A DNA stretch of 64,000 nucleotides from Candidatus Sumerlaeota bacterium (GCA_016931035.1 JAFGFN010000026.1:21235-85234), one strand, 5' to 3'; numbered from the stretch's first letter, positions 43,791 to 61,717 are shown. Notes: generated by a model from the letters alone, not told the origin. A program made the numbers and translations.

Positions 43791-44915
43791 GTGACGAAAG
43801 TGAAGATTCTCACCGTCGTCGGCGCGCGGCCCCAATTCATCAAGGCCGCCATGGTGAGCCGCGCCGTCGCCCGACACAACGCCGCCGCCCTCCCCACGGC
43901 CCCACCCGTAGTCGAGGAAATCGTCCACACGGGTCAGCACTACGATCACGGAATGAGCCAGGCCTTCTTCGACGAGATGGAGATCCCCGGTCCCGCCGTC
44001 AATCTCGGCGTCGGGTCGGGCACCCACGGCGAGACAACCGCCGCCATGCTCCGCGGCCTCGAGGCCGAGATCGTCGCGCGCCGTCCCGACTGGGTCCTCG
44101 TCTACGGCGACACGAATTCGACTCTCGCCGGCGCGCTGGCCGCCGCGAAACTCCACGTCCCCGTCGCGCACGTCGAGGCCGGGCTGCGTTCCTTCAACAA
44201 ACGAATGCCCGAGGAGATCAACCGTCTCGTCGCCGACCACGTCTCGACCCTTCTCTTCTGCCCCACCCGCGCGGCGGTCGAGAACCTCGCGAGCGAGGGG
44301 ATCGCCGACGGAGTTCACGCGGTGGGCGACGTGATGTACGACGCCGCGCTCGCCTTCGGAGACCTCGCCCGCCAACACAGCGACGTTCTCGATCGCCTCG
44401 GTCTCGCGCCGAAGGGCTACGCCCTCGCCACCTGTCACCGCGCCGAAAACACCGATAGCGGCGAACGCCTCGCCGCCATTCTCGACGGCCTGGGCCGCGT
44501 CGCCGAGTCCGTGCCGGTCGTTTTGCCGCTCCACCCTCGCACGCGCGAGCGGATCGAACGATTCGGGTTCGCGAAACGCGCCGAGCGTCTCCGCACCGTC
44601 GAGCCCGTCTCGTTTCTCGACATGATCCGGCTCGAGCAGGAGGCGCGCGCGATCCTCACGGACTCCGGCGGCGTTCAGAAGGAGGCCTACTTCCACGGCG
44701 TGCCGTGCGTCACGTTGCGCGACGAGACCGAATGGGTCGAGACTGTCGAGGCCGGATGGAACACCCTGGCGGGCGCCGACGCCGACGCGATCGCCCAGGC
44801 CGCGCGCGACGCCTCCCCCGGCCGCCCGATCGCCGACTACGGCGACGGCCACGCGGCGGACAAGATCCTCTCAATCCTTCTCTGCCCTTCCTCAAACCCC
44901 GAGGAAGAAACCTGA
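43791..44915 (+). CDS. wecB: UDP-N-acetylglucosamine 2-epimerase (non-hydrolysing)
   Basis: Contains the WecB motifs (VGARPQFIKAA and HVEAGLRS). GTG start at 43791 or 43800. Confidence 0.85.
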   Translation: MTKVKILTVVGARPQFIKAAMVSRAVARHNAAALPTAPPVVEEIVHTGQHYDHGMSQAFFDEMEIPGPAVNLGVGSGTHGETTAAMLRGLEAEIVARRPDWVLVYGDTNSTLAGALAAAKLHVPVAHVEAGLRSFNKRMPEEINRLVADHVSTLLFCPTRAAVENLASEGIADGVHAVGDVMYDAALAFGDLARQHSDVLDRLGLAPKGYALATCHRAENTDSGERLAAILDGLGRVAESVPVVLPLHPRTRERIERFGFAKRAERLRTVEPVSFLDMIRLEQEARAILTDSGGVQKEAYFHGVPCVTLRDETEWVETVEAGWNTLAGADADAIAQAARDASPGRPIADYGDGHAADKILSILLCPSSNPEEET

Positions 44916-44966
44916 GGCTTTTCCTGAATGCGGAGAATACCTCTTGCCGACGCCGATCTCTCGAGT

Positions 44967-45062
44967 TGTCGTTGACTCTGGCCAACTGAAGTTGGAACAA
45001 CAAACAAAGAACCCACACGGGCTACGCTTGTCCGTTTGTTGTCCCAACTTCAGTTGGCCAAC
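44967..45062. repeat. 96-bp palindromic repeat element, copy B
   Basis: Same 5' 44 nt as copy A (2 SNPs). Right arm ccgtttgttgtcccaacttcagttggcc is the near-perfect reverse complement of the left arm. Same orientation as copy A. Confidence 0.8.
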
Positions 45063-45101
45063 ACATCCGTCATTCCCGAGAATCCCGGAAGTGTCTTCAT
45101 C

Positions 45102-47012
45102 TCAAACGAACGGTCTACGGTTGTCGAGGAACTGGCGGCAGAAGCTGTTGAGGCAGAGGAAACCCCAGATCTTGCGGCCGAAACTCGGCTCGCTCGGAAG
45201 ACCCCGCCGGATCGCGTCGAAATCGAGAAACTCCCGCGCCGCCTGCGAGGGTTCGCCGAACGCCTTCTCGACGAACTCCTTGAGCGCGTCGCCGTACCAT
45301 TGCACCAGCGGGACCGGGAATCCCATCTTGTCCTTGCGCCCGAGGACGCTCGCGGGCAGGGTGTCGCCGAAGAAGAGTTTGGGCAGACGCTTGAGCTCGC
45401 CCCCCCTGAACTTCACGTTCGCCGGGATCGTCGCCACGAACTCGACCAGCGGATGGTCGAGGAACGGGGTGCGCGACTCGACGCCGTGCGCCATGCTCGT
45501 CCGGTCCTCCACTTGGAGCAGCGCGGGCAGGAGCGTGAGGAAGTCGAAGTGGAGCATGCTGTCGAAGTAGCATCGGCTCCCGATCTCGTTGGAGAAATAC
45601 ACGCGGCGAAACTCTTCGTACACGTCGTAGTCGCGCGGGAAAGCGTCCCACCGCACTTCGTCGCGCACCTCGGCGCTGCGGTCGATCAGGCGGAAGTAAC
45701 GGCGGTCGTAGTCGTCGAACATCCCGGCGCTGAAGAAGTGGCGCATCAGAGGCTCGTATCCGGCGAGCGACTGGAGATTCGGGATGATCGACTCATAGGT
45801 GACGATGAAACGCGGCGAATGGCTCTCGCCCGCCACCGCGCCTTTGAGGCACTGCTCGAAGTAAGCGATCAGGTATCGAACGTACCCGCCGAAGATTTCG
45901 TCCGCGCCCTGTCCCCCTAGGACGACCTTGCGTTTCCCTTTCACGTACTTCGAGACGACGTACTGAGGGAACGAGCCGGGCCCGGCGACCGGGAAGTCCA
46001 TGTGATAGATCAGGCGGTCGAACGCATCGACGAAGTCGTCGCTCGACACCGGGATCTCGCGCAGGTCGATCCCTTCGCGTCGCGCGACGTCGCGCGCGAA
46101 CCCGCTTTCGTCGAACCGTTCGCCGTATCCGCGAAAGACGCCGTGGAACGCCATGAAATCGTCGGCGCCCGTCGCGCGTCGGGCCAGGGCGGCGATGCCG
46201 CTCGAATCGATGCCGCCGCTCAGATAGCCGCTCACGGGAACGTCGCTCACGACGTGCGCGCGGATCGAGTCCTCCATGAGCTCGCGGCATCGCTCGACGA
46301 ACCACGCCTCGCCGTGCTCCATGTCGAGGTCGTACCGTACCTTCCAGTAGGTGTGTGACCGCGTCCCCTCGGAATCGACCGTCCGCCACGTAGCGGGCGC
46401 GACCTCCTCGATGTTCTCGAACAGGGTCTTGCCGCGCAGGCAGAACTGGAAGGTCAGATAATCGCGCAGTCCCGAGCGGTCGATCCGCACGTCGGGAAGG
46501 AACGAAAAGAGCGCCTTGATCTCGGAGGCGAAATAGAGCGTCTCGCCCGACCAGGCGACGTACAACGGCTTGATCCCGAAACGATCGCGCGCGAGGAAGA
46601 GCCGTCGGCGGCGGGCGTCCCAGATCGCGAAGGCGAACATCCCGCGCAGGTACTCGGGACAGGCCTCGCCCCACTCCATATAGGCCTTGAGGATCACCTC
46701 GGTGTCGGACTGCGTCCGAAAGCGGTGCTTGGATTCGAGGCGGGCGCGCAGCTCGCGAAAGTTGTAGATCTCGCCGTTGAAGACGATAGTGAGGTCGGCC
46801 TCGTCTTCGCGCATCGGTTGGCGCGCGCGTTCCGAGAGATCGAGAACGCTGAGCCGAACGTGGCCCATCCCGAGGGCGGCGTCGGGCGCGAGCCAGAGAC
46901 CTTCGTCGTCGGGTCCGCGGTGCTTCTGCAGGGCGTTCATCCGCTCGAGGCGTTCGCCCAGCCGGTCGATCGCCCCGCCTGACGGATTGAAGATTCCCGC
47001 GATCCCGCACAT
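45102..47012 (-). CDS. asnB: Asparagine synthetase B-type glutamine amidotransferase
   Basis: N-terminal MCGIAG nucleophile and the PP-loop SGGIDSS. Confidence 0.85.
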   Translation of the reverse strand: MCGIAGIFNPSGGAIDRLGERLERMNALQKHRGPDDEGLWLAPDAALGMGHVRLSVLDLSERARQPMREDEADLTIVFNGEIYNFRELRARLESKHRFRTQSDTEVILKAYMEWGEACPEYLRGMFAFAIWDARRRRLFLARDRFGIKPLYVAWSGETLYFASEIKALFSFLPDVRIDRSGLRDYLTFQFCLRGKTLFENIEEVAPATWRTVDSEGTRSHTYWKVRYDLDMEHGEAWFVERCRELMEDSIRAHVVSDVPVSGYLSGGIDSSGIAALARRATGADDFMAFHGVFRGYGERFDESGFARDVARREGIDLREIPVSSDDFVDAFDRLIYHMDFPVAGPGSFPQYVVSKYVKGKRKVVLGGQGADEIFGGYVRYLIAYFEQCLKGAVAGESHSPRFIVTYESIIPNLQSLAGYEPLMRHFFSAGMFDDYDRRYFRLIDRSAEVRDEVRWDAFPRDYDVYEEFRRVYFSNEIGSRCYFDSMLHFDFLTLLPALLQVEDRTSMAHGVESRTPFLDHPLVEFVATIPANVKFRGGELKRLPKLFFGDTLPASVLGRKDKMGFPVPLVQWYGDALKEFVEKAFGEPSQAAREFLDFDAIRRGLPSEPSFGRKIWGFLCLNSFCRQFLDNRRPFV

Positions 47013-47014
47013 GG

Positions 47015-48229
47015 CTAGACCCCCAATCGTTCATACCACCGAATCAGATTCGCCGCCTGCGTTTTCCACGAATATCGCTCGCGGGCCCGGTCGAACGATT
47101 CGGGCCGGAACTCGCCGCGGTCGAGCCGCGCGAGGAACGCGTCGAGCGCCGCGGCGATCTCGCGCTCCGACCCCATAGGATACACGTCGCCGATTTCGCC
47201 TTCGCGCACGATCCGGCGCAGCTCGGGCAGGTCGCTCGCGCACACCGCGACGCCCGCCTCGATGAACTCGAAGAGCTTGTTCGGCGTGCAATACAGACTG
47301 TTGAGCATCCCGCTCTCGCGATAGGGGATCACTCCCGCGTCGGCCGCCGCGACAAACGCCATCATGCGCCGGTGCGACGTCCAGGCGCCGAAATGGACGT
47401 TCGAGATTCTCTTGCGGCGACAGAGAGACCGCAAGCGCTCTTTCTCCGTCCCCTCGCCCAGGAAGAAGAGACTCGCCCGTCCCTCGAGATGCCGGAAGGC
47501 GAGCGTCAGGTTCCTCAGGTTCCGATCGGCCGACAGGTTCCCCTGAAAGACGATCTTTCGCCCCGCCGAGGAGGGCGAGCCGAAATGCTTCGCGAAATCC
47601 CCGTTACCCGCGGGTGCCGGACACGGCTCGGCGCAGCTGTTGTAAAGAATCTCGGGAATCGCCGTCCCGTACAAGCCCGCCATCGCCTCGGCGATGGATT
47701 GGTTAACGGCGATGGCGAGATTCACTTCGGATAGACACGCGCGTTCGATCCGCGTCCAATAACGCTGAAAGAACGGATTGATCGTCTGGAAGGGGAAGAA
47801 CTCGTGCGCGTCGTAAATGAGCCGGGCGCGCGGACACTGTCTCTTGCGGACCTCGATCCCCGCGGGCAGGGTTTTCAGGTCGTGACAGTGGATCGCGTCG
47901 AACGTCTCGCCCGCCGGGACGTTGCGCAGAAAGTAAGCCGTGTTGTGAGGCGAAGGGCCGCTCCCGAACAGATACCACAAGCTCTGCGCGAGACCGTAGA
48001 GTCCCGAGGGGAGGCGTCGCGCAACGCGACGCGCGGACGAAGAACTCTCGAACTCGCCACCCGACTCGACCACCGCCCGCACGCGCGGGTCGAGTCCCTC
48101 GGCCTCGATGCGGGTGGGGACGGAAACGAGCGTCGCATCGCGCCCCGATTCGACCAAAGCGTTCGTCTCGCCGACGATTCGCCGGTCGAGCTGCGTTCCG
48201 TGGGCGGAGAGTACGAGGATTCGCGACAT
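47015..48229 (-). CDS. Glycosyltransferase family 4
   Basis: 404 aa with a GT-B C-terminal domain. 2-nt gap to asnB. Confidence 0.75.
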   Translation of the reverse strand: MSRILVLSAHGTQLDRRIVGETNALVESGRDATLVSVPTRIEAEGLDPRVRAVVESGGEFESSSSARRVARRLPSGLYGLAQSLWYLFGSGPSPHNTAYFLRNVPAGETFDAIHCHDLKTLPAGIEVRKRQCPRARLIYDAHEFFPFQTINPFFQRYWTRIERACLSEVNLAIAVNQSIAEAMAGLYGTAIPEILYNSCAEPCPAPAGNGDFAKHFGSPSSAGRKIVFQGNLSADRNLRNLTLAFRHLEGRASLFFLGEGTEKERLRSLCRRKRISNVHFGAWTSHRRMMAFVAAADAGVIPYRESGMLNSLYCTPNKLFEFIEAGVAVCASDLPELRRIVREGEIGDVYPMGSEREIAAALDAFLARLDRGEFRPESFDRARERYSWKTQAANLIRWYERLGV

Positions 48230-48382: not shown

Positions 48383-49183
48383 ATGAAGTCCGGCCCTCTG
48401 TGTTTGCTCACCAAGCACCGCGCCATGTTGTGTCGAACAACGTGGAACGAGATCAAGGCGCGTTACGCCGGCTCGATTCTCGGGCTCGCCTGGCTCGTTT
48501 TCTATCCTCTCCTGTTCCTCGGAGTCTACTCGGTCTTCATCTACATCCTGATGGGAAAGCGCGCAGGCGATCTTTCCGATCCCGCCTTGATCGACCAGGT
48601 GCTTCTCGTTTTCTGCGGCCTGATTCCGTTCATCGGTTTCGCCGAAGGGTTGGCGGGCGGCGTGGTCTCGGTCACGCAGAACGCGAACCTGATCAAGAAC
48701 ACCCTGTTCCCCATCGAACTGGTCCCCGTCAAGGCGGTCCTCGTCGGGCAGTGCACCCAGGTGGTCGGTACGGCGATGCTGCTGGTGTGTCTGGCCGTCT
48801 TCGGCAAGTTGACGATCTGGGTTCTCGTTCTGCCGCTCGTCTGGCTGCTGCAAATCGCCCTGTCGGTAGGGGTGGCCTGGATTCTGTCGAGCCTCAACGT
48901 CTATTTCCGCGACCTGCAAAACATCGTCGGCGTCGTCACGTTGATGTTGATGTTGATCAGCCCGATCGCCTGGAAGGCGGTCGACATCCCGGCGAGCGTT
49001 CTGCCGTGGATGATGTTCAACCCCTTGTACTACGTCATCGTCGCGTGTCAGCAATGTCTGTTGCTCGGTCGTTTCCCCGACCCGATCCTTCTCGAAGTGC
49101 TCGGAGTTCTCGCCGTGCTCGTCTTCTTCGGCGGATACGCCTTCTTCCGCAGGATGAAGCGTGTGTTCGCCGACAACGTCTGA
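48383..49183 (+). CDS. wzm: ABC-2 type polysaccharide export permease
   Basis: 266 aa, 6 TM helices, ABC-2 family pattern. Confidence 0.8.
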   Translation: MKSGPLCLLTKHRAMLCRTTWNEIKARYAGSILGLAWLVFYPLLFLGVYSVFIYILMGKRAGDLSDPALIDQVLLVFCGLIPFIGFAEGLAGGVVSVTQNANLIKNTLFPIELVPVKAVLVGQCTQVVGTAMLLVCLAVFGKLTIWVLVLPLVWLLQIALSVGVAWILSSLNVYFRDLQNIVGVVTLMLMLISPIAWKAVDIPASVLPWMMFNPLYYVIVACQQCLLLGRFPDPILLEVLGVLAVLVFFGGYAFFRRMKRVFADNV

Positions 49184-49193: not shown

Positions 49194-51047
49194 ATGAACG
49201 ATTCGGCCATCCGCCTCAAAGAGCTCGGGAAGATGTACAAACTCTTCCGCCATCCGGCGGACAGGGTGTTCGACGCGTTCGGTCTCCGCCGCCGTCCGTT
49301 CGGACCCAAACTCGTCTTCCAGGAGTTCTGGGCGCTGCGCGGCATCGACCTGCGCGTGACCAAGGGGGAGAGAATCGGCATCATCGGCCAGAACGGCGCG
49401 GGCAAAAGCACCCTGCTCAAGATCGTCACCGGCGTCGCTGCGCCGACCGAAGGGAGCGTCGAGGTCTCGGGACAGATTCAGGCCTTGCTCGAACTCGGGA
49501 CCGGTTTCCACCCGGAATTCACGGGACGCGAGAACATCCGGGCGTCGTTGTCGCTCAACGAATTCTCCTCGTCCGAGATCCGCGAGATGGAGGAGGATAT
49601 CGTCGACTTCGCGGAACTCGGCGATTTCATCGACCACCCTCTCAAGACCTATTCGGCGGGGATGGCGGCCCGATTGGCTTTCTCGACCGCCTCGGCCATT
49701 CGGCCCGAAATCCTCATCATCGACGAGGTCCTGGGCGCGGGCGACGCCTACTTCGCGGGCAAATGCGTCGAACGGATGAAGCAACTCACCCACGAATCGG
49801 GCGCGACGGTCCTCTTCGTCAGCCACGACCTGAACAGCGTCCAGGCCCTGTGCGAGCGCGTCCTCTGGATTCATCGCGGCCAGGTGCATCGCGACGGCGC
49901 GCCGCTCGATACGATCCAGGACTACATGGCGATGGTGCGGCGCGACGAGGAAACGCGGCTCCGCGCGCGCGACCTGAGAGTCCTGAAGAAACAGGCCCTC
50001 TTCCTCGAACGGGACGAGGACGTTTACGAAAAGACCTTGTTCCACTTTGTTTGTCCCGGATCGCCTCCCCCGCCGCCGGGACAGCGCATCTACGGCCTGA
50101 CCCTCTCGGTCGACGAGCAGGAGGCCGCCCGAATCGCGGTCGGGAGCCCGATGGACAATTCGGCCGATCACATGAATTACCTCATGGACACTCCCGGCTA
50201 CATGGACTGGGGACCCGCCGCCAAGGATCGCAACAGTCGGCCCTATCGCGAGTACGGCGACTACAAGGGGCGCTACGGCCACGCCCCCTTCGAGTTCGCC
50301 GTGCCGCGCACTCTGTTGCGCGAGGGCGAGACGCAACGCCTTCAACTCGACATCGAAGCCTCCGTCACTCATGAGGGCATCGCCGTCGAGGCGTACAACG
50401 GCGAGGCCTATGTCCCGATCGGCCCCGTCGCTACGGGCGAAGGCGTGGCGACGCGCCTCGAGTTTTCGAGCGCCCTTCTCCGACCCGGAAAGCAAGCGCT
50501 CGGCGCCGCCGCGCCGTCCGGAGAAACCGCTCTTCTGTCCGCCGCCGAACGTCCGGCCGAGCACGCGCCTCAACAACCCGTCCGCCACGAATACGGCGCG
50601 GGAGGGGCGAAGATTCTCCAGGTGCGAATGCTCAACGCCCAGGGCGAGGACACGCGCGTCTTTCATCCCGACGAACCGATGCGGGTCGAGATCGAATTCC
50701 AAGCCGAGGCCGAGCTGGCCGATCCCGTCTTCGTGTTCTGCGCCTATCTGCCCGACGGCCGGTGCGCCACCCAGTGGATCGTCGATTCGCGGACAATGGG
50801 CTCGCCCCGCGTGCCGCCGGGCAAGGGGCGCGCGACGTTTCGGATCGACCGGCTTGTCTTGGGCAAGTCCGCCTACGTCGCCAGCGCGGCGATCTTCAAG
50901 TTCCTGCGTCCCGACGGGCGGGAACCCGAAAGCTATCACGTCCTCGACCGATGCATCCATTTCCAAGTGGTACAAGGCGTAGAACACGTTTACGAGAAAG
51001 GGTTGTGCGTGCAACCCTTCGAGGCGGAGATCGATCTTGGACGCTGA
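49194..51047 (+). CDS. wzt: Polysaccharide ABC exporter ATP-binding protein with a C-terminal carbohydrate-binding extension
   Basis: Nucleotide-binding domain (GQNGAGKST, LSGG-like, DEVLGAGD) in residues 1-250. About 180-aa unique linker. C-terminal 150-aa Wzt_C-like beta-sandwich (KILQVRMLNAQGE...). Confidence 0.85.
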   Translation: MNDSAIRLKELGKMYKLFRHPADRVFDAFGLRRRPFGPKLVFQEFWALRGIDLRVTKGERIGIIGQNGAGKSTLLKIVTGVAAPTEGSVEVSGQIQALLELGTGFHPEFTGRENIRASLSLNEFSSSEIREMEEDIVDFAELGDFIDHPLKTYSAGMAARLAFSTASAIRPEILIIDEVLGAGDAYFAGKCVERMKQLTHESGATVLFVSHDLNSVQALCERVLWIHRGQVHRDGAPLDTIQDYMAMVRRDEETRLRARDLRVLKKQALFLERDEDVYEKTLFHFVCPGSPPPPPGQRIYGLTLSVDEQEAARIAVGSPMDNSADHMNYLMDTPGYMDWGPAAKDRNSRPYREYGDYKGRYGHAPFEFAVPRTLLREGETQRLQLDIEASVTHEGIAVEAYNGEAYVPIGPVATGEGVATRLEFSSALLRPGKQALGAAAPSGETALLSAAERPAEHAPQQPVRHEYGAGGAKILQVRMLNAQGEDTRVFHPDEPMRVEIEFQAEAELADPVFVFCAYLPDGRCATQWIVDSRTMGSPRVPPGKGRATFRIDRLVLGKSAYVASAAIFKFLRPDGREPESYHVLDRCIHFQVVQGVEHVYEKGLCVQPFEAEIDLGR

Positions 51048-54000
51048 CACCCAATACTTCGATCAGCCCGAAATCTGGGGACAGGCGCCGGAACCGTACC
51101 AGCGCCAGGTCCTGGCGGACGTTCTCAGTCTGTTGCCCGACGACGTCGAGAGCGTCCTGGACGCCGGCTGCGGCGACGGCTACATCGCGAACGCCCTGCC
51201 CGAACGCCTTCGCGTCGTCGGACTCGACGTGAGCGAAACGGCCCTCCAACACGTCCGCCGGGAAACGCGGGTCGGGTCGATCGCGGACCTTCCGTTCCCC
51301 GACGGATCGTTCGATCTCGCGATGGCCAACGACGTGGTCGAACATCTGTCGAAAGAGGATTACCGGCGGGCCCTGGCCGAACTGCGGCGCGTCTCTCGGA
51401 AGTACATCCTTCTCACGGTTCCCCTCAACGAACAACTCGAAGCGAACGAAGCCCGGTGCGCCGATTGCGGGGCGATCTACCACGTGAACCATCATCGGCG
51501 ATCTTTCTCCGAACGGTCCCTCGATCGTCTGTTCGGCGCCAGGTTCAAAGTCGTCGAAACCCGGCTGTCGGGAGACGTGACCGGAAGACCGCGCGACCCG
51601 ACCGCCGCGCTTCGTCGGAACCTGGGTTTCTATCACACATGGGAAAAGGCTATGTGCCCCGAGTGCGGGTCGAAACGCCAAATCCAGCCACCCACTTCTT
51701 CCACCCTGCGCCGGACGCTCGACGCTCTGCGCACGCGACGTTATGCGGAGACTCTCGTGCAACGCGGCCCGTGGAACGATCGTTCGGAAATCGTCGCGCT
51801 GTTCTCGCGTCGCCCGGGGCGGGTCCCTCTCGAAGACCTCTCTCCCGAAACGTTCTCCGTCCCCGCGCTCCGTGTGAATCTCGCCAATGCTCTCCAACGC
51901 GCCGAACCTGGGTTCACGCCGGGCGCGATCCGGCCTCGCTTTCTAACCCGGGGACCGTGGGAAGCGACCCCCAACGGTCTCCAAGCCCGGACGGGCGACG
52001 AACCGTCGCTCGTCCTCATCCGCTTTCCCGTCGAGCCCCGAGAAGGCGATCGACTCATCGTCGAAAGCGAGGGACGCGGTCGGTTGATCGTCTCCTCCCT
52101 CGATCCTCTCCTCGGGCGCGCGTTCGCTCTTCAGGACAAGCGCTACACGCAGGAGGACGCCCGGTTTCTGGAGATTCCCGTTTGCGAGACCTGGTGGCCC
52201 GACCAGGCGGGTTGGGGACTGGAGATTGTCGCCCAAGACGCTCTCGTGCTTCATTCCGTCGAGCTCCGGCCCGCCTCGGACGCCGCTCGGCGAACACTCA
52301 ACGCCGTCCGTCTCGAACCGGGACACCACATCGTGCGACGAACGATCGACGGCGTGGTGCGTTCGTGGGGACTCATGACGGAACACGCAGGATGGCGCCC
52401 GCTGCCGGATCTCGAAGCGTTCTTCTCGAAATCTCGCCCCAAACCCGAATCCCACGACGCCGATTGGGCTGAGTTCGCCGAGACGATCCGGGAGGCGGAC
52501 GACCGACGCCGCCGCGAGATCGATCTCCTCCGACGCGGCTCCGAGTTGACCGAGACGAAGCGCGCGAGGGCCGAAGAAGCGTATTCTCAAGCGCAAGAAC
52601 GGGCCTCGGCGGTGGAGACGGCGCGCGACGAGATGCAGGCGCTTCGAACCCAAGTCGAGACGCTCCGCGCCGCGCTGACTCGCACCGAGGAGGCGCGAGA
52701 CCGGGCCGAGAAGAGCTATATCGCCGCCTGCGAAGAACATCGGGCCTTGAGCGCCGAAACGGAATCGCTGCGCAAGACTCTGGCTCAAACCGAGGAGGGA
52801 TGGAGCCGGGCCGAGAAAACCTACATCGCCGCCTGCGAAGAACACCAGGCGCTTTGCGCCGAGACCCAGTCGTTGCGCGACGGTCTCGCGCGGACGGAAG
52901 AGGCGCGGAATCGAGCGGAGAAGAGCTATATCGCCGCGTGCGAAGAACATCAGGCGATGCGTCGCGGGACGGAGTCTTTGCGCAACGCCCTCACCGAGGC
53001 CGAGAACGCGCTCCGGCGCGCGCAGGAGGACCACGAGACGGACCTGAAGGAGAAAGAGCGTCTCCGCGACGAAGCGCGAGAACTCCGGACGGCCCTGTCT
53101 CAGGCCCAGGAGACCCGCCGGCGCGCCGAAGAATCGTGCGCGGCACTGCGCGACGAGAAGAACGCGCTCCACGACCAGCTCGCGAACGTGCGCGACGCGC
53201 TCGTTCAGGTGGAACAGGCGCGCGACCGCGCCGAGAACGCTCGCGTCGCCCTGTCCGAAGAACGGCTGGCGCTTCGAGTCGACATGGACGCCCTGAGACG
53301 TTCTCTCGCTCAGACCGAGAAAGAACGTCTCAGGATCGAAAGCGCGTCGGCCGCGCTGGAACGTCGAGTGATGAAACTCGAGCAGGCGCTGACCGATGCG
53401 GAACAGGAAATCGCGACCTCGAAACAGGAAGTCGCCTCTCTGCACGATGAGACCGTCCGCGCCGAGGTAGAGATCGACAAGACGCGCAGGCAGCGCGACA
53501 AGGCGGAGAACGCCTGTGTCGTCCTGCGAAAATCCCACGAAGACCTCGAGAAGCGCCTCGCGGCCCTAACCGAAGAATGTCGCTCGATGCGAGGCGTGCG
53601 GGGCGGGACGCGCGAGATTCTCTACGCCGTCAAGAAATGGATCGTCGGGCACCCTCCCGATTCGCCAGACGAGACGTATCCCGCGCGCTGGAAGTCGTTG
53701 CCCGCCGCCCTCGCCGACGGCCGCTCGCCCCGGGTCCTCGTTCTGTCCCACATGTTCCCGCATCCCGATCAACCCGCGCTCGGCTCCTTCATCCTCGAGC
53801 AGGTCCGGGCGCTCCGTCGCGACGCGGGAGTCGACGCCCGCGTCCTTTCGGGCCGACCTTACTGGATGAACCTCTCGCGCCATCCCCGAACGCTGTGGCT
53901 CCGAAACCTCGACTATTCGCGCAAGGCGCTCCCCAACGTCCGCTGGCGTGAACTCGACGGCGTCCCGGTCATGTACGTCCCCTACCGAGTCGTCGCCCGT

Positions 54001-54960
54001 CCGTGGACGCACGGCTGGTCGTATCGCAACGCCATGATGCGCGTGCTCGACCGGGTGCGAGCGGAATTCCGTTTCGACCTGGTCCACGCCCACACCGCCT
54101 ATCTCGACGGGACCGCCGGTCTGGCCATCGCTCGGCGCTTCGGAGTTCCGTTCCTTATCACCGAGCACACCGGCCCGTTCTCTCATTTACTTCGCGGTCC
54201 CATCATGACCCGCCAAACGAAACGCGCGCTCAACGGCGCCGACCGGACGATCGCCGTGTCGAACGACCTGAAACGAAACATGGGCGAAGTCATGAGTCCG
54301 GAGAAGGGCGAAAAGATCGTCGTCCTGCCCAACGGCGTCGACACGGAACTCTTCCGTCTGCCCGACGAACACCGGCCCGATCCGCGAGCGCCGCGCATCT
54401 TCTTCGTCGGCGGACTCGGACCCGTCAAGAACCTGCGTCTTCTCCTTAGGGCGTTCCAGATTATCGCGGGAGAGACTCCCGATGCGACACTGAACCTGAT
54501 CGGGGGCGAGGAAAAGGCCGGCAAGAAGAAGGTTCTCGACGATCTCGCCGGGGAACTCGGCCTGGTCAACCAAGTGCGATTCCTCGGACCCAAGACGCGC
54601 GAGGAAGTGGCGGAGCTCCTTCGCGAGGAGGCGGATCTCCTAGTCCTGTCCAGTCGGACGGAGACTTTCGGTTGCGTTCTTGTCGAGGCGATGGCGTGCG
54701 GCAAACCGGTCGTCGCCACGCGGTGCGGAGGACCCGAAGACATCGTGGCCGACAACCAAGTCGGACGGTTGTGCGAGAACGACAACGTCGAGGACCTGGC
54801 GCGGGCGCTTCGCGAGACGATCGAGAACCTTCCGCGATTCTCGCCGCAAGTCATCCGCCAATTCGCGGTCGAACGCTACGGATACGACGCCCTCACCGAG
54901 AACCTGCGACGGCTCTATGCGGAGCTCGCCGGGGCTGGAAACGGGCTACGCCGGACATGA
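51037..54960 (+). CDS. Tri-domain protein: SAM-dependent methyltransferase, extended coiled coil, glycosyltransferase family 4
   Basis: TTG start overlaps the wzt stop. MT motif I VLDAGCGDGY with Zn-ribbon-like CADC...CPEC. Residues about 480-850 form a heptad-periodic, 35-aa repeat coiled coil. Residues about 900-1307 form a GT4 domain ending in an EX7E region (ETFGCVLVEAMACGKPVVAT). Confidence 0.8.
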   Translation: MDADTQYFDQPEIWGQAPEPYQRQVLADVLSLLPDDVESVLDAGCGDGYIANALPERLRVVGLDVSETALQHVRRETRVGSIADLPFPDGSFDLAMANDVVEHLSKEDYRRALAELRRVSRKYILLTVPLNEQLEANEARCADCGAIYHVNHHRRSFSERSLDRLFGARFKVVETRLSGDVTGRPRDPTAALRRNLGFYHTWEKAMCPECGSKRQIQPPTSSTLRRTLDALRTRRYAETLVQRGPWNDRSEIVALFSRRPGRVPLEDLSPETFSVPALRVNLANALQRAEPGFTPGAIRPRFLTRGPWEATPNGLQARTGDEPSLVLIRFPVEPREGDRLIVESEGRGRLIVSSLDPLLGRAFALQDKRYTQEDARFLEIPVCETWWPDQAGWGLEIVAQDALVLHSVELRPASDAARRTLNAVRLEPGHHIVRRTIDGVVRSWGLMTEHAGWRPLPDLEAFFSKSRPKPESHDADWAEFAETIREADDRRRREIDLLRRGSELTETKRARAEEAYSQAQERASAVETARDEMQALRTQVETLRAALTRTEEARDRAEKSYIAACEEHRALSAETESLRKTLAQTEEGWSRAEKTYIAACEEHQALCAETQSLRDGLARTEEARNRAEKSYIAACEEHQAMRRGTESLRNALTEAENALRRAQEDHETDLKEKERLRDEARELRTALSQAQETRRRAEESCAALRDEKNALHDQLANVRDALVQVEQARDRAENARVALSEERLALRVDMDALRRSLAQTEKERLRIESASAALERRVMKLEQALTDAEQEIATSKQEVASLHDETVRAEVEIDKTRRQRDKAENACVVLRKSHEDLEKRLAALTEECRSMRGVRGGTREILYAVKKWIVGHPPDSPDETYPARWKSLPAALADGRSPRVLVLSHMFPHPDQPALGSFILEQVRALRRDAGVDARVLSGRPYWMNLSRHPRTLWLRNLDYSRKALPNVRWRELDGVPVMYVPYRVVARPWTHGWSYRNAMMRVLDRVRAEFRFDLVHAHTAYLDGTAGLAIARRFGVPFLITEHTGPFSHLLRGPIMTRQTKRALNGADRTIAVSNDLKRNMGEVMSPEKGEKIVVLPNGVDTELFRLPDEHRPDPRAPRIFFVGGLGPVKNLRLLLRAFQIIAGETPDATLNLIGGEEKAGKKKVLDDLAGELGLVNQVRFLGPKTREEVAELLREEADLLVLSSRTETFGCVLVEAMACGKPVVATRCGGPEDIVADNQVGRLCENDNVEDLARALRETIENLPRFSPQVIRQFAVERYGYDALTENLRRLYAELAGAGNGLRRT
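52684..52998 (+). repeat. 3 x 105-bp near-identical in-frame tandem repeats encoding 35-aa coiled-coil units (RAEKSYIAACEEH...)
   Basis: Unit starts at 52684, 52789 and 52894. At least four more diverged 35-aa units follow. Confidence 0.8.
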
Positions 54961-54981: not shown

Positions 54982-57534
54982 TCATTCCGAGAGGGGCGTC
55001 GTTCGCCACTCGATGTCGCCGCCTTCGAGCGACGGCGGCGACGGACCGGGATACAGCCCCAGTCCCGTGATACAAACGCAACGCTGCTCGACGCGGCGCG
55101 TGGCCAGCGTCACGGTAGTCGATTCCTCGCTCGCCCACGGCGCGAGCGGAACCCAGTCCCGGACGGCCTTCGCCGACCGGTAGGCAATCTCGAATCGCCG
55201 TCTCCCGATCTCCGCTTCCAAAACGTTCTCCTCGGGGCCGTTCGAGTAGACTTCCAGGAAGAGTCCGCCGCTCGACGATCCGAACAATTCGTTCAGGTTC
55301 CGAGAGGAGAGCCGCACCTTCGCACCGCGAGTCAAGAGCATCGTCCGATTGTTCTCCACGAAATCCGAGGAAGAAACGCCGGTCGAGGGCGCCTCCGAAG
55401 CCGGACGCCATCCCTCCGGATCGAACGCTTCGGTCGCCGGAACGAATCGCGCGACCGCGTTCGGGCTCAACCCGTAGAGCCGTATGACGTAGTCGAAGCT
55501 CGATGTCCGTAGCGTGTCGCGCCTCAGACTCCGCCTCTGCGATACGCCGTCGGCCATTGGACACATGAATGCCGTTGTCTGGAAAAGCGGCGTCATGTGC
55601 CGTCGCAAAACGGCCCCCCACGGGAGGCTCAAAGACAACGTCTCCGACGAATAGGCGGATTCGCAAGCCAGGATTCCGAAACGACGATCGGGCGCAAGCT
55701 CGGAATACAGCGGCTCGACCCGGCCCTGTGGAAGCGGCGCGGGATTGAAGTAACGCAGCGGTATCGCAAGAATCGGGGACACACCGCTTGCCGAACACGC
55801 GCGGCTCGACTCCCCCGCCGCGCGGTAGCGATTCCAGTAGAGGGCGCGATGACGAACGCCCCAGTTTCCCGCCAGGAGTCCAACGCAAACCGCCGCCGCG
55901 ATCCACTTCGCCGCGCTCCTCACGCGGCCGGGTCGGGTTCGCAGCAGTTCCGACGGCGCATACAACAAAGCGACGAAGTAAAGCGTGTAGAGCGCGACGT
56001 AGTTGCGGCGCTCGAAATGGTGTCCGTATTGAAGAATGAGGAGATACGTCAGTGGAAACCACAGAACGGCCAGGATATCCCATCGGCCCGCCTTTCCCCG
56101 GAACGCCCGCGCGAGAAAAAGCAACCACCCGCTCACGACGCACAACGCGCCGATCCCAAAGAGAATCGGTCCCTCGGCGTGCGCCAGCATCCGGAGCGCT
56201 TCCGCGATCTCTCGTTTCTGGTTCGCGGCGGGGTTCGCGTGGACGAGGAGCATCGAGAAGTATCCCGGGCCAAAGAAAGCGTAGAGAAGGTTCGCCGCGG
56301 TGAACACGGCGCCGATCGCGAAACACAGCCATCCGAGCCGCAAAGCCTGACGCCCATGCCGCCGCGACAGAAACAGCAACCCGATGGAAAGGGCGATCGA
56401 GAGAACCGAGAGCGTCACGACGAGATTCCATCGCGCCGCTTCGCTCAGGTTCGTGACGAGCGCGTACCCTTGCGACACATCGGCCTTGTACCAGAAGAGC
56501 GATGGAGCGTTCGGCAGGACGGCGAAGACGCCGAGTCCCACGAGAATCGCTAGTGTCGACAGGCTGCGCCGCAAGACGACGAGCGCGGCAAGACCCTCGA
56601 GAATCGCCAGGACGATCAGCAAGAACATCGTCGTCGGGTAAGCCAGCTGCGACAACGCGAGAAGCGCGCCTCCCGCCGCCGCCCATCCGGCCCCGCCGGA
56701 ACGGCCCGTCGATTCGGACGCCCACAGATACGACGCCAAACCGCCCACGAGCAGGCACGCTTGCACAGTCACCGGAAACCCGGACGGCAGATAACAGGAG
56801 TGCATGAGAGAGAACGTCGGAAGCGCCGCCGCGACGGCGCCCGCGGCCGCCCCGAAACGTCGGGCGAAAAGAACGCCGAAGATCGCCGCCGTGAGCAAAC
56901 CGCAAATCAGATTCGCGCTCACCTGGATCGTCTCGCGCATCGGCAGACCGAGCAGGACCGCAATCGGAGGCAGCGGCACGTGAAACAGAGGCTTGGTGTG
57001 GACGGCCGCCAGGGTCCTGAAGTACGCCCTCGCGGCCTCCGAGCGACGCATCCCATCGAGTCTCTCGACGGAACTGCCGAACGTCGCCGCGGCATTCCGC
57101 CGGAGATCGTCGGCGAGAAGGGGCGAGAGGCTCCCGCGCAACGCAAGACTCAGATACGCCGTCGCCAGCGTGTTCTGCTGCATGTAGAGATTCTCGTCGT
57201 ACATGAAGAAGCCGCTCTTCACGTACTTCCCATGACACGCGGCGAACACGACCAGAAGAACGACGATCCCGATCGCGAGCGACCGAAGCGACGGACCCGC
57301 GCCGCCGTCCCGTCCGTCGTCGTTCGACGCCGCGTCCAAGTGAAACGCCGTCGCCTGTTCTTCCAGGACGGAAAGATCCAAGAACCGGGATTGCGCGACG
57401 TAGCGCGGGCCCGTCTTGGTGCGGACGAACAGCCGCACCAGAATCGCCTTGAGCGCACCCGAGAATCCCGGGACCCATCCGAACGCGATGAGAGCCGATC
57501 GAAAAGCAACGAAACGCGTCGGAGTCATGCGCAT
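54982..57534 (-). CDS. Large polytopic membrane protein, GT-C-like (YDE motif in first loop), with C-terminal soluble domain
   Basis: Start ATG at 57534 (MRMTPTRF) overlaps the upstream gene by 10 nt. About 14 TM helices. The upstream Arg-rich extension of the ORF and the alternative-frame ORF 54893..57478 are rejected. Confidence 0.5.
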   Translation of the reverse strand: MRMTPTRFVAFRSALIAFGWVPGFSGALKAILVRLFVRTKTGPRYVAQSRFLDLSVLEEQATAFHLDAASNDDGRDGGAGPSLRSLAIGIVVLLVVFAACHGKYVKSGFFMYDENLYMQQNTLATAYLSLALRGSLSPLLADDLRRNAAATFGSSVERLDGMRRSEAARAYFRTLAAVHTKPLFHVPLPPIAVLLGLPMRETIQVSANLICGLLTAAIFGVLFARRFGAAAGAVAAALPTFSLMHSCYLPSGFPVTVQACLLVGGLASYLWASESTGRSGGAGWAAAGGALLALSQLAYPTTMFLLIVLAILEGLAALVVLRRSLSTLAILVGLGVFAVLPNAPSLFWYKADVSQGYALVTNLSEAARWNLVVTLSVLSIALSIGLLFLSRRHGRQALRLGWLCFAIGAVFTAANLLYAFFGPGYFSMLLVHANPAANQKREIAEALRMLAHAEGPILFGIGALCVVSGWLLFLARAFRGKAGRWDILAVLWFPLTYLLILQYGHHFERRNYVALYTLYFVALLYAPSELLRTRPGRVRSAAKWIAAAVCVGLLAGNWGVRHRALYWNRYRAAGESSRACSASGVSPILAIPLRYFNPAPLPQGRVEPLYSELAPDRRFGILACESAYSSETLSLSLPWGAVLRRHMTPLFQTTAFMCPMADGVSQRRSLRRDTLRTSSFDYVIRLYGLSPNAVARFVPATEAFDPEGWRPASEAPSTGVSSSDFVENNRTMLLTRGAKVRLSSRNLNELFGSSSGGLFLEVYSNGPEENVLEAEIGRRRFEIAYRSAKAVRDWVPLAPWASEESTTVTLATRRVEQRCVCITGLGLYPGPSPPSLEGGDIEWRTTPLSE

Positions 57535-58475
57535 GGCTCGACGCCCTCCCGCACGAGATGGGTCAGCAGGTAGTCCGTCGCCATCGGAATCGAATAACGG
57601 TCGTCCATCCAAAGCGGATTGACGATGATATTCTCCTCCAAACCGCGCTCGATCCGTTCGAGCAGGGGGCTCCGCAATCTCGCGAAGGCCGAGGGATAGA
57701 GAAACTGCGTGCGACGACTCGTGTCCGCGTATTCGAACAGTCCGTTCGGCGCCACGCGTTCGCGCAGCCACTCGTCGCATCGCCGCGCCGCTTCCCACGC
57801 GGCTTCCGATCCGGAAGCGGCGGCGTATTGGGTCACAAGGCTCATCGTGATCGAGGCGTAGCCGACGTCCGGGCCGTCGTATTCGAGAAAGCAACCGGTC
57901 GGAAGTTGGTGCGCGATCAGAAGACCGATCTGTTCTTCCGCCGCTCGAGCGAACGTCGCGTCGTCCGCGATGCGCGAGGTGTTCCAGAGCGCCGCGCACG
58001 AGGCGGCGAGCTGGTTCGCCACGTCGGCCCGTGGGTGTCGCGCGAGCCAGCGGGCCGTCGGGCGCAAGTCGATGCCGAAGTCGTCTCCCGCCAGAAGCAT
58101 CGCCGCCGTGATCGCTTGGGCCGACATCGCCGTGGCGCAGAAGCTCCGTTCCCACGGATAGACTTCGTCCACCGAGCCGTCGGAATGGCGCTGGGAACTC
58201 CAGAACCGCGCGGCCGCCCGAATCTGCGGCGCAAAGAGATCGCGCGCACTCGGCAGGCACTGTCCGAGACGCGCAAGGTAGAGCGCACACTCCTGATAGC
58301 GAGCGTTGCAGGTGTCGTGGATGCCGTAGTGCCACCAGGAGCGGTCGAAACAACCGTGCGTCGCCGACTCCGGGTCCATGTCGAGGAAACCAAGGAAACG
58401 CTCACACAGCGCGCGGCCGAAACGGAGGAACTCGCTCGACCGATGCGGAGGCGGTGGGGTGAGATCGATCGTCAT
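57525..58475 (-). CDS. Hypothetical protein (possibly alpha/alpha-toroid fold)
   Basis: Start MTIDLTPP at 58475, ATGA-overlapping the upstream gene. Trp/aromatic-rich. Confidence 0.4.
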   Translation of the reverse strand: MTIDLTPPPPHRSSEFLRFGRALCERFLGFLDMDPESATHGCFDRSWWHYGIHDTCNARYQECALYLARLGQCLPSARDLFAPQIRAAARFWSSQRHSDGSVDEVYPWERSFCATAMSAQAITAAMLLAGDDFGIDLRPTARWLARHPRADVANQLAASCAALWNTSRIADDATFARAAEEQIGLLIAHQLPTGCFLEYDGPDVGYASITMSLVTQYAAASGSEAAWEAARRCDEWLRERVAPNGLFEYADTSRRTQFLYPSAFARLRSPLLERIERGLEENIIVNPLWMDDRYSIPMATDYLLTHLVREGVEPCA

Positions 58476-59320
58476 GAGGCTTTTTGCCCACTCTTGCGCG
58501 CCGCCAGGGTCAGTGTCAGGTTGAGATCCACCGAGGGAATCCATCCGAACGGGAAGAACCGCCGCCGCTCGACCTGGAAGGAGCGGCGCAGCTCTCGAAC
58601 CACGCCTCGCGCCGAGTTGCAGTGCTCGATCGCGATCGCCTGCGCGTAGTCCAGACCGTATCGCTTGGAAAGCGTCCGTTGCGAAGTGAATCGTCGCCCC
58701 AGATTCCAGGCCCATCCTCCTTCGCAGGGAAGTCCGACAAGAAACAAACCGTCATCCGCGAGCACGCGCCGGACTTCCGCGAGTACGTCGCCGAGGAAGA
58801 AGAGATGCTCCAGGGAATAGATCGAGATAATCGTGCCGAATGCGCCGTCGCGAAAGGGAAGGCGGCACGCGTCGGCCTGCATCACTCGGGCTCTCGGAAA
58901 TCGCCGCCTCGCCGATCGTAAGGAATCGAGATTCACGTCCACGCCCACGACGCTCTCGCGTTCAGAGAAGTAAGAGAAGTGAGCGCCCCCTCCGCACCCC
59001 AGGTCGAGAGTCCACGCTTCGGGAGAAGGGGGATACTGCGCCACTCGCTTATGGGCCGAGTGGTGAATCCAGCGGAAAACACCGTTGCCCAATTCGAAGT
59101 ACTCGTCGAGCGACTCGGCGGCCACGCTCTTCCACTTCTGGCAGTGCGGGTTGTCCGCGCCGCGAGTATCGACTCGGGGTTCCGACGGCATCATGACGAG
59201 CACGCCGTCCGTCGATTCGAATTCGCGCCCGCAGGTTTCGCAGCGAGTGTTTTCTCCTTCCATGCGCGCCGCCGTCCGGCAATCGGGACACGCGAGCAGA
59301 CTCTCGAACGGCGCTTTCAT
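58472..59320 (-). CDS. Class I SAM-dependent methyltransferase with an N-terminal Zn-ribbon
   Basis: CPDC...CETC zinc ribbon, then LDLGCGGG (motif I) and VDVNLD. Confidence 0.75.
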   Translation of the reverse strand: MKAPFESLLACPDCRTAARMEGENTRCETCGREFESTDGVLVMMPSEPRVDTRGADNPHCQKWKSVAAESLDEYFELGNGVFRWIHHSAHKRVAQYPPSPEAWTLDLGCGGGAHFSYFSERESVVGVDVNLDSLRSARRRFPRARVMQADACRLPFRDGAFGTIISIYSLEHLFFLGDVLAEVRRVLADDGLFLVGLPCEGGWAWNLGRRFTSQRTLSKRYGLDYAQAIAIEHCNSARGVVRELRRSFQVERRRFFPFGWIPSVDLNLTLTLAARKSGQKAS

Positions 59321-60258
59321 CGCGTCGAGTCCTCCTCCGGGCGAGAAGCGGGAGGGCGTCTTCGCGCCAGCTGGCCCAACTCGAGCCGCACCTGGGCGAT
59401 CTGCTCGGCCAAGAGACCGAAGAAGAAGACGAACACGCCCGACAAGATGAGCGCGAGAGACGAGCCAAACACACCTCCCCTAAGAACGATCTGAATCACG
59501 CCCCAGACGCTCCCGACGACGAGCAGGAAAAGCCCCGTGGGCGTGAAGATGCGTTGCGGATTGAAGAGCATTGTCAAACGCAGCAGAATGTGAAGGAAGC
59601 GGAGTCCGTCGCGCAGCGGACGAATCCCGCTGCGCCCCGTGCGGCGGCGTCCGATCGTCTTCAGAGACACGTATCGCACTTCGCGTCCCAGCTTGAGAAA
59701 CGCCATCGTCACCGTCGTCGGATAGGAGTAGTGCCGGGGGAAAAGATGAACGACTTCCAGGAGCGGCTCGCGCCGGACCGCGCGGAATCCCGAAGTGAGG
59801 TCCGCGATCTTCTCCTGCGATAGGAATTCCGCGAATCGGATCAGTCCGCGATTGCCGAACGAACGCAGACGCGAGACGTTCGCTCCGGGCGCGCGAGCCC
59901 CGACCACAAGGTCGCACTCGCCGCAGTGCTCGAGGAGGGCGGGAATCTCTTCGGCCGGGTGCTGCCCGTCGGCGTCGAGCATCACGATCCATTCGCCCCG
60001 TGCCGCCTCGCACCCGGTGCGGACGGCGGCCCCGTTGCCTCGGTTCTTCGAATGCCGCACCACGCGCGCGCCCGCTTCGCGCGCCGCGTCCGCCGTGCCG
60101 TCGGTCGAACCGTCGTCCACGACGACAATCTCGTTCGCTATGTTCAGCGCCGCGATGCGGCGGACGACTTCGCCCACGCTTTCCGCCTCGTTGAAGGCGG
60201 GGATCACCACGCTCACGTCCGGCCGGGTCGCACTCGTCGGGTCGAGACTCGTCATCAT
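59317..60258 (-). CDS. Polyprenyl-phosphate glycosyltransferase (GT2, GtrB/ArnC/DPM1-like)
   Basis: VSVVIPAFNE, DDGSTDGT and DADGQH motifs plus two C-terminal TM helices. Confidence 0.8.
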   Translation of the reverse strand: MMTSLDPTSATRPDVSVVIPAFNEAESVGEVVRRIAALNIANEIVVVDDGSTDGTADAAREAGARVVRHSKNRGNGAAVRTGCEAARGEWIVMLDADGQHPAEEIPALLEHCGECDLVVGARAPGANVSRLRSFGNRGLIRFAEFLSQEKIADLTSGFRAVRREPLLEVVHLFPRHYSYPTTVTMAFLKLGREVRYVSLKTIGRRRTGRSGIRPLRDGLRFLHILLRLTMLFNPQRIFTPTGLFLLVVGSVWGVIQIVLRGGVFGSSLALILSGVFVFFFGLLAEQIAQVRLELGQLARRRPPASRPEEDSTR

Positions 60259-61700: not shown

Positions 61701-61717
61701 GACGGAGATCTGCCCTT

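Follow-up and report, generated by a model that had tools for sequence, protein, structure and literature searches.

What does a single, very long protein encoded directly behind the glycan exporter genes wzm and wzt of a Candidatus Sumerlaeota bacterium do with the exported chain: build it, measure it, terminate it, or all three? The gene occupies positions 51037-54960 of a stretch of 64,000 nucleotides (GCA_016931035.1, JAFGFN010000026.1:21235-85234; hereafter the window, with a G+C content of ~64%). An earlier note, made from the sequence alone, described its product as an N-terminal S-adenosylmethionine (SAM)-dependent methyltransferase, a very long coiled coil (~350 aa) and a C-terminal glycosyltransferase of family GT4 fused in one open reading frame (ORF), which was said to be coupled to wzm-wzt. 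It also ascribed a C-terminal beta-sandwich extension to Wzt, saw no recognisable domain in residues 200-480, and proposed a functional analogy with the chain terminator and ruler WbdD, while holding the architecture to be absent from characterised systems. According to the established scheme, the terminator occupies a coiled coil's distal end, the polymerising glycosyltransferases (GTs) act near the membrane, and the cap is read by a module of Wzt (PMC11231755, PMC3482155). The present analysis confirms that the fusion protein is real and that it consists of five parts, a methyltransferase, a beta-sandwich, a coiled coil, a basic junction and a GT4 module. By analogy, and with moderate confidence, we read it as a putative chain terminator, molecular ruler and polymerase module in one polypeptide, serving a glycan of an ATP-binding cassette (ABC) transporter-dependent pathway.

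Reading frame and start of the fusion gene

The G+C content of the three codon positions of the fusion ORF is gene-like (0.72/0.47/0.77). Shine-Dalgarno-like motifs (GAGG and GGAG) are located 7-16 nt before the TTG codon, and residue 1 of the product (MDADTQYFDQ) lines up with the N-termini of homologues (MAEDRAYFEQ, MADDRQYYEQ); together, these two features support the TTG start. The stop codon of wzt (TGA, 51045-51047) falls within the first codons of the fusion gene, so that the two genes overlap by 11 nt, in agreement with the coupling noted earlier. A protein named 'glycosyltransferase [Candidatus Sumerlaeota bacterium]' at NCBI is 100% identical to the fusion protein. No transmembrane (TM) segment was predicted in the fusion protein. 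An antisense ORF opposite the coiled-coil region (Table 1) is most likely a by-product of the high G+C content and the repetitive sense-strand codons and not a gene.

The source is a metagenome-assembled sequence, the start codon is not ATG and the interior of the gene is repetitive, so an error of sequencing or assembly might have merged two or three genes, or TTG might not be the true start. Such an artefact is highly improbable and was rejected: the frame is continuous, the homologue N-termini match residue 1, and the same architecture recurs in at least 46 cluster representatives derived from independent assemblies, which leaves the alternative named in the earlier note, two genes separated by a hidden stop or frameshift, unsupported. 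The cultured bacterium Desulfotomaculum defluvii has the fusion as well (P0017), in a version that has diverged further and whose GT4 module is a distant relative.

Domain composition of the fusion protein

The N-terminal region was assigned to the class I SAM-dependent methyltransferases by Pfam (Methyltransf_11/25/23 at residues 24-168, E 2e-17, above the gathering scores). Motif I (VLDAGCGDG, residues 40-48) is invariant across the family, and so are the four cysteines of an insertion (C141, C144, C207 and C210), which presumably binds zinc. The last strand of the methyltransferase (WNDRSEIVALF, residues 246-256) comes after this insertion and a long helix. An AlphaFold2 model of residues 1-490, built from 16 input sequences, was confident (predicted local distance difference test, pLDDT, 86; predicted template modelling score, pTM, 0.86) and contained a Rossmann-type methyltransferase at residues 1-259. 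Comparison with the PDB by Foldseek gave exclusively class I SAM methyltransferases (E 1e-9), the sugar O-methyltransferases AtmM and RebM among them; CgnL (7pd7), the closest PDB structure reported for the ORF6 protein of Klebsiella pneumoniae O7, was not among the top 50 Foldseek matches.

The region in which no domain had been recognised earlier (residues 200-480) proved to be occupied. Up to residue ~259 it completes the methyltransferase, and residues 270-460 form a beta-sandwich resembling a carbohydrate-binding module (CBM), with the conserved motifs NPLQ, WWPDxxG and SWG. No family match to a kinase was found in the fusion protein or in the locus, the beta-sandwich standing at residues 270-460 instead. 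The beta-sandwich was also considered as a copy of the carbohydrate-binding module Wzt_C of the neighbouring Wzt, and this was rejected (hhalign probability 1.4%).

The coiled coil is evident from several properties of the sequence. Proline is absent from residues 471-872 (402 residues), at a frequency of 0.073 in the rest of the protein (P = 6e-14), and residues 471-852 contain four glycines. The hydrophobic a/d phase stays constant over residues 478-852. The autocorrelation of the sequence reaches maxima at lags of 35, 70 and 105. Compared with shuffles, the lag-35 value scores z = 16, and the surplus of similarity at multiples of seven z = 23. At the DNA level, the 105-bp repeat (Table 1) was detected by Tandem Repeats Finder (75% matches, score 301); in the protein it reads TEEARxRAEKSYIAACEEHxA... 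The coiled coil of ~375 residues, a little longer than estimated in the earlier note, would measure ~56 nm if continuous. It is followed by the amphipathic junction, with a hydrophobic moment of 0.66-0.69 and a net charge of +4, which is kept in the 22 family representatives with longer spacers and is missing where the spacer is nearly nil. By analogy, the junction is a candidate membrane-interface helix or element, which may anchor the protein to the membrane.

The GT4 Pfam domains of the C-terminal module span residues 918-1264 (Glycos_transf_1 PF00534, E 5e-37; PF13439, E 7e-24; both above the gathering scores). The E-x7-E motif is intact (E1209...E1217; ETFGCVLVE, residues 1209-1217) and invariant in the family, and the other family invariants are also present. 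Among PDB sequences the module matches BshA, MshA and PimA (E 7e-21 to 2e-18). Pfam found neither a second GT module nor a GT2 domain in the fusion protein, which has one GT4 only. The methyltransferase, the coiled coil and the GT4 (GT-B) fold proposed earlier for this protein are all borne out by these results.

Relatives and natural variation in spacer length

Fifteen further proteins with the methyltransferase-to-GT4 layout came from a word-indexed search, and an exhaustive phmmer search with the N module gave 413 cluster representatives at E <= 1e-30. The best 150 of these 413 (50% identity level) were classified with hidden Markov models built from the close family. The combination of methyltransferase, beta domain and GT4 was present in 46 of them. 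In 19 the methyltransferase and beta domain occurred without GT4, and several of these proteins end in a coiled coil, which is the format of WbdD; 13 others had methyltransferase and GT4 without the beta domain. A methyltransferase match only was obtained for 81, including eight long proteins that end in a more divergent GT4. The same domain order, for which the earlier note had recommended a database search, is therefore carried by at least 46 clusters.

The two end modules are nearly constant in size. In 18 aligned relatives the N module measures ~470 aa (468-483 aa in 14 of 17), the outliers being P0007, which is truncated N-terminally (446 aa), and P0016, which is divergent (382 aa). The GT4 module measures ~415 aa (412-422 aa in 13 of 17), and the relatives with exceptional sizes (P0006, P0007, P0015, P0016 and P0018) are truncated or divergent. 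Between these modules, the middle region varies from 45 to 415 aa. Across the 46 cluster representatives, spacer lengths lie between 37 and 432 aa (median 144), the longest being that of the window protein. A comparison of coiled-coil lengths across genomes had also been suggested earlier, and the outcome, variable spacers between constant end modules, is ruler-like.

In the 90%-identity cluster of the closest homologue (P0002), three assemblies have a protein of 1206 aa and two have one of 1262 aa. The two alleles have 2 mismatches in 1206 aligned positions and differ further by exactly one 56-residue repeat, i.e. eight heptads. Such a pattern would be anticipated for a selectable spacer length that is altered by the gain or loss of repeats.

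A separate observation concerns the coiled coil of P0009 (locus L002, gene 10001-13159), in which the heptad QQQLSTT stands five times in perfect tandem. Such an array is a microsatellite-like route to changing the spacer one heptad at a time.

Linkage to the exporter genes and distribution of the cassette

The Wzt protein of the window consists of a nucleotide-binding domain, a middle region of ~200 aa and a C-terminal Wzt_C module (~50586-50978). Pfam identified ABC_tran and Wzt_C (PF14524, E 1.8e-15; 57.6 bits, the cut-off being 30.4), NCBIfam agrees, and the C-terminal beta-sandwich extension assigned earlier is hence this module. The nucleotide-binding domain is closest to Wzt of Aquifex aeolicus (8dku/7k2t/6amx, E 2e-69), and the whole protein is 60% identical, over its full length, to Wzt of loci L001 and L002. 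All six of the six Wzt proteins linked to the family have 600-688 aa and conserve the ~200-aa middle region. For this region (residues ~255-455, 49953-50570) no family match and no similarity to Wzt_C were detected, and its interpretation as a second Wzt_C was rejected (BLASTP E 0.2, hhalign probability 1.1%). The wzm product has five TM-like segments and is 47-68% identical to the wzm products beside homologous fusion genes.

The exporter genes recur with the fusion gene. The pair of wzm and Wzt_C-bearing wzt directly precedes it in L001, L002, L088 and L089 and lies within 3 kb of it in L003 and L006. The short contig L005 shows wzm alone, placed directly upstream of the fusion. Overlapping stop and start codons occur in the window, L002 and L089. 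Four more informative loci (L007-L010) were among the matches listed in a motif-pattern scan of genome contigs, with patterns that represent generic methyltransferase motifs from the N-module alignment. In L007 (Planctomycetales) the N module stands alone (473 aa) after wzm-wzt, and in L009 (Nitrospiraceae) it follows wzm-wzt together with a different domain and a short coiled coil, which brings the related loci with linkage to a Wzt_C-bearing wzt to eight (L001, L002, L003, L006, L007, L009, L088 and L089). N modules without GT4, alone or with a coiled coil only, are found in L007, L009, P0018, P0028 and others. An unfused N module beside wzm-wzt corresponds to the WbdD-type format and is what would be expected if the N module is a terminator.

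A set of precursor genes accompanies the fusion gene in L001-L003, L006, L088 and L089. The travelling genes encode a UDP-GlcNAc 3-dehydrogenase/acetyltransferase fusion, a DegT aminotransferase, a WecB 2-epimerase, AsnB-like amidotransferases, a B12-binding radical SAM enzyme and extra GT4 enzymes. The methyltransferase-GT2-AsnS trio is conserved in L003, and the B12-radical SAM enzyme and AsnS occur also in L002 and L006. L002 and L003 also encode, next to the fusion gene, conserved proteins of 508-543 aa, for which tblastn gave no counterpart in the window. The hosts of the cassette include Sumerlaeota, a deltaproteobacterium and the cultured Gram-positive Desulfotomaculum defluvii. The latter (strain JCM 14036, L088, genes 1-22906) has nearly the same cassette, encoding Wzy_C, a UDP-sugar dehydrogenase, DegT, the dehydrogenase/acetyltransferase, Bac_transf, an epimerase, Wzm and Wzt (with Wzt_C), followed by the methyltransferase-coiled coil-GT4 fusion, a formyltransferase, a WbmS-like protein, two AsnS, two GT4 and WecG. 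Because the cassette is distributed among several phyla, including this Gram-positive, its product need not be the O antigen of a lipopolysaccharide.

Proposed mode of action and alternative explanations

The way in which the five parts might act together can be proposed by analogy with WbdD, WbbB, ORF6(O7) and WsaE. The fusion protein is probably soluble and membrane-peripheral, and probably oligomerises via its coiled coil. The GT4 module would lie at the membrane end, where the undecaprenyl-linked chain grows, and would perform one chain-building glycosyl transfer, together with the cluster's stand-alone GT4 and GT2 enzymes. The coiled coil would keep the N-terminal methyltransferase at a distance of at most ~56 nm, and the methyltransferase might be reached solely by chains that span this distance. 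The CBM-like beta-sandwich, a likely clamp, probably holds the chain end at the methyltransferase, which would cap the non-reducing terminal sugar with a methyl group and stop extension. Since neither the protein nor the locus yielded a kinase, a plain methyl cap, not methyl-phosphate, is expected. The cap may serve as the epitope for the C-terminal binding module of Wzt, the chain would be exported by Wzm/Wzt, and a Wzy_C-type ligase or oligosaccharyltransferase would attach the exported chain. The constant end modules with a variable spacer between them, the linkage to Wzt_C, the unfused N modules beside wzm-wzt and the lack of a kinase support this proposal.

Several points weigh against it. 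The cap, its chemistry and the effect on chain length are predictions drawn from the analogous systems. The cluster has two more candidates for methylation (the methyltransferase at 58472-59320 and the B12-radical SAM enzyme), and therefore the fused methyltransferase could decorate internal residues instead of capping the chain. Some relatives have nearly no spacer (37-79 aa); such spacers need no ruler, so the coiled coil may be accessory. Differences in repeat copy number, as between the P0002 alleles, can also come from assembly collapse. A single GT4 cannot be the whole polymerase, and a polymerising, an adaptor or a terminal-residue step are all candidates for its role. Homology to WbdD was undetected in searches of the PDB, and the argument is therefore one of architectural analogy, not orthology.

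One explanation built on these points is that the protein is a scaffold that measures nothing, in which the coiled coil merely oligomerises and tethers two enzymes, the methyltransferase decorates internal residues or a precursor, and the chain length and export signal are set elsewhere, for example by the methyltransferase at 58472-59320 or the B12-radical SAM enzyme. This would agree with the two further methylation candidates, with the relatives having 37-79-aa spacers, which apparently work without a long coiled coil, and with the report that methylation by WsaE in vitro was independent of chain length (PMC2943079). We nevertheless consider a mere scaffold rather unlikely, as the methyltransferase occupies the coiled-coil end remote from the GT, which is the place of the terminator in all characterised systems (PMC11231755). 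Furthermore, the N module accompanies Wzt with its Wzt_C even where no GT is attached (L007 and L009), and the spacers of near-identical alleles differ by whole multiples of the heptad, as expected if length is selected.

Another explanation could be that the protein is a terminator and ruler as proposed, but that its GT4 adds an adaptor sugar or a unique terminal residue, the latter being the residue that the methyltransferase modifies, while the stand-alone GT4 and the GT2 enzymes polymerise. If the GT4 were a terminal-residue transferase, one would look for it beside the methyltransferase and not across a 56-nm rod, and the polymerase of K. pneumoniae O7 is also split between a coiled-coil protein and a stand-alone GT (PMC11231755). 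This assignment of GT4 seems unlikely to us, even though the protein has one fused GT against two each in WbbB, ORF6(O7) and WsaE, and the cluster contains at least four other GTs (33651-34967, 42632-43732, 47015-48229 and 59317-60258). The proposed terminator, ruler and polymerase module in one polypeptide is the reading retained below.

Other genes of the cluster

The features of the fusion gene and its surroundings are collected in Table 1. The stand-alone GT4 adjoining wzm is a likely partner GT; it is 27% identical to a GT4 downstream of the fusion gene in L003. The group at 35788-47012 comprises genes of a DegT aminotransferase, a UDP-GlcNAc 3-dehydrogenase/acetyltransferase fusion, a Wzy_C+TPR ligase-like protein, Bac_transf, a GT2, a WecB 2-epimerase and an AsnB-like amidotransferase. 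Within the group at 58472-63658, the small class I methyltransferase (58472-59320) has 282 aa. The precursor gene set points to 2,3-diacetamido-2,3-dideoxy sugars if read through the known WbpB/E/D/I pathway; the sugars of the glycan are probably 2,3-diacetamido-2,3-dideoxy hexoses or uronic acids, partly amidated.

Table 1. Fusion gene, its parts and neighbouring features, in window coordinates
Feature	Positions	Strand	Basis or remarks
Fusion gene	51037-54960	+	1307 codons, TTG start, no stop inside the frame
Class I SAM-dependent methyltransferase, residues 1-259	51037-51813	+	Pfam, AlphaFold2 model, Foldseek
All-beta sandwich, CBM-like, residues 270-460	51844-52416	+	Confident AlphaFold2 fold, CBM-like fold matches
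Coiled coil, residues ~478-852, ~375 aa, ~54 heptads	52468-53592	+	Proline-free, heptad-regular
Tandem repeat, 105 bp (35 aa, 5 heptads), 2.6 copies	52684-52956	+	Inside the coiled coil
Basic amphipathic junction, residues 849-872, MRGVRGGTREILYAVKKWIVG	53581-53652	+	Conserved in longer-spacer relatives
GT4 module (GT-B, retaining-type), residues 892-1298	53710-54930	+	Pfam PF00534, PF13439, PF13579, PF13692
Antisense ORF, 531 aa	51943-53538	-	Opposite the coiled-coil region, gene-like G+C at third codon positions
wzm, ABC-2 permease of glycan exporter	48383-49183	+	Pfam ABC2_membrane E 1e-11, NCBIfam Wzm/RfbD model
wzt, ATP-binding subunit	49194-51047	+	ORF from GTG 49161; probable start ATG 49194
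Stand-alone GT4	47015-48229	-	Pfam; divergent from wzm, adjoining
Precursor, initiation and ligation genes	35788-47012		Family matches; gene set recurs in related loci
Further cluster genes: small class I methyltransferase, GT2, B12-binding radical SAM enzyme, second AsnB-like amidotransferase	58472-63658	-	

Several neighbouring genes have unusual features of their own. In the protein encoded at 38616-40511 (+), a Wzy_C membrane domain, of the type of O-antigen ligases or O-oligosaccharyltransferases, is joined to TPR repeats at the C-terminus; it resembles the separate WsaB and WsaA of the S-layer glycosylation cluster of Geobacillus stearothermophilus (PMC2943079). Lipid A-core and protein are both candidates for the acceptor of the glycan. 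The 653-aa product of 40751-42712 (+) has an N-terminal Bac_transf domain (residues 3-200), ~7 TM-like segments and CoA_binding_3 (residues 429-546), a domain order that is the reverse of the usual WbaP type; this ORF may be an unusual fusion or may comprise two genes. Convergent with the fusion gene, 54982-57534 (-) encodes a protein of 850 aa from ATG 57534, with ~10 TM-like segments and, at the C-terminus, a soluble region of ~290 aa, and overlaps the stop of an upstream ORF, 57525-58715 (-), by 10 nt. Neither product has a family match (Pfam and NCBIfam for the 850-aa protein), and the 850-aa protein could be a membrane glycosyltransferase or polymerase of the cluster that has escaped recognition. 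Just upstream of the cluster, 30710-34967 (-) encodes a MatE/MurJ-like transporter of the MOP family, a 456-aa protein with six TM-like segments that gave no family match, and a GT4; this may be a Wzx/Wzy-type pathway adjoining the ABC-transporter pathway.

Comparison with known systems

The fusion protein shares two traits with the class of rulers formed by WbdD, WbbB, ORF6(O7) and ORF7(O4): a coiled coil separates a terminator-type enzyme from the GT end, and the gene is encoded with Wzm and a Wzt_C-bearing Wzt. The functional analogy with WbdD drawn in the earlier note holds in respect of the methyltransferase, the coiled coil, the variable spacer and Wzt_C, which are consistent with a terminator and ruler. 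The opinion that no characterised system has such an architecture does not hold, as WbbB (O12), ORF6 (O7) and WsaE are characterised fusions.

WbdD of Escherichia coli O9a/O8 (K. pneumoniae O3/O5) is likewise a methyltransferase terminator on a coiled-coil ruler, whose cap is read by the C-terminal module of Wzt, and its format recurs in the unfused relatives described here, which have methyltransferase, beta domain and coiled coil only. It has 708 aa, with the coiled-coil region within residues 460-708 (<250 aa), and its structures are available in the PDB (PMC3482155). Unlike the fusion protein, WbdD has no GT and recruits WbdA via its C-terminus, and WbdD of O9a has a eukaryotic-type kinase. 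In the PDB searches WbdD was absent from the 21 phmmer matches (E <= 0.01), from the 60 profile-search matches listed and from the top 50 Foldseek matches. As there is no kinase and no sequence similarity was found, the fusion protein is not a WbdD homologue.

WbbB of K. pneumoniae O12 combines the terminator, the coiled coil and two GTs in one polypeptide (PMC11231755). WbbB of K. pneumoniae O12 and Raoultella terrigena resembles the fusion protein in having an N-terminal terminator, a coiled-coil ruler and C-terminal GTs, and differs in that the terminator is a GT99 beta-Kdo transferase and the polymerase consists of GT102 and GT103, in place of the methyltransferase and GT4 found here. The fusion protein is not a WbbB homologue, its N-terminus being a class I SAM methyltransferase and not GT99.

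Two other systems unite an N-terminal methyltransferase and C-terminal GTs in one polypeptide next to wzm-wzt, as does the fusion protein, which has a single GT4 where both of them have two GT modules. ORF6 of K. pneumoniae O7, which was dissected biochemically, contains an N-terminal methyltransferase, a kinase, a CBM, a coiled coil and two GT2 modules, and its orthologues, some having GT modules and some lacking them, are spread over several phyla (PMC11231755). In common with ORF6, the fusion protein has a methyltransferase, a CBM-like beta-sandwich before the coiled coil, a C-terminal GT and wzm and wzt alongside; in both cases part of the polymerase is left on stand-alone GTs, and relatives occur with and without fused GTs. 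In ORF6, however, a kinase of 223 aa is inserted between the methyltransferase and the CBM and the cap is methyl-phosphate, whereas the fusion protein has the four-Cys insertion and no kinase. The GT modules differ as well (two GT2 against one GT4, compared by architecture), and so do the precursors, which are rhamnose and ribose in O7 and probably 2,3-diacetamido sugars here.

WsaE of G. stearothermophilus NRS 2004/3a, which acts on an S-layer glycan, comprises an N-terminal capping 2-O-methyltransferase and two rhamnosyltransferase domains, and wzm, wzt and wsaE are connected by overlapping stop and start codons (PMC2943079). The fusion of an N-terminal methyltransferase to chain-building GTs, the gene order wzm-wzt-fusion with overlapping codons, and the presence in the cluster of a Wzy_C-type transferase and a TPR protein are all paralleled here, and the present family also has a Gram-positive carrier (D. 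defluvii). The difference is that no long coiled coil was described for WsaE with its two rhamnosyltransferase domains (PMC2943079), while the fusion protein has one GT4 and a coiled coil of ~375 aa.

In comparison with WbbB, ORF6(O7) and WsaE, the distinguishing features are the single GT4, the four-Cys methyltransferase without a kinase, the beta-sandwich without detectable homology to Wzt_C and the unusually long, repeat-built coiled coil. No current idea is overturned by the family, whose design is already proven in Klebsiella and Geobacillus. A CBM-like domain within a terminator was stated by Kelly et al. 2024 to be unknown outside ORF6 of O7 (PMC11231755), and the fusion protein would be the second example. 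Taken as a whole, and only tentatively, the results can be read as follows: a widespread, uncharacterised, cross-phylum family of terminator-ruler-GT4 proteins exists, with at least 46 clusters (50% identity level); the CBM-like domain beside the methyltransferase clamps the chain end; the ruler is tuned by repeats that are multiples of the heptad (35 aa here, 56 aa in the P0002 cluster); and the relatives form an allelic series from ~0 to ~56 nm, in which the window protein is the longest polysaccharide ruler described. The natural length variants, both the 37-432-aa spacers and the one-repeat polymorphism, are suitable for testing the ruler model, and the cultured carrier D. defluvii JCM 14036 makes such tests feasible. 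The control of chain length by a coiled-coil ruler has so far been proven in a few enterobacterial O antigens, and the present family would carry the same logic into uncultured phyla and a Gram-positive bacterium.

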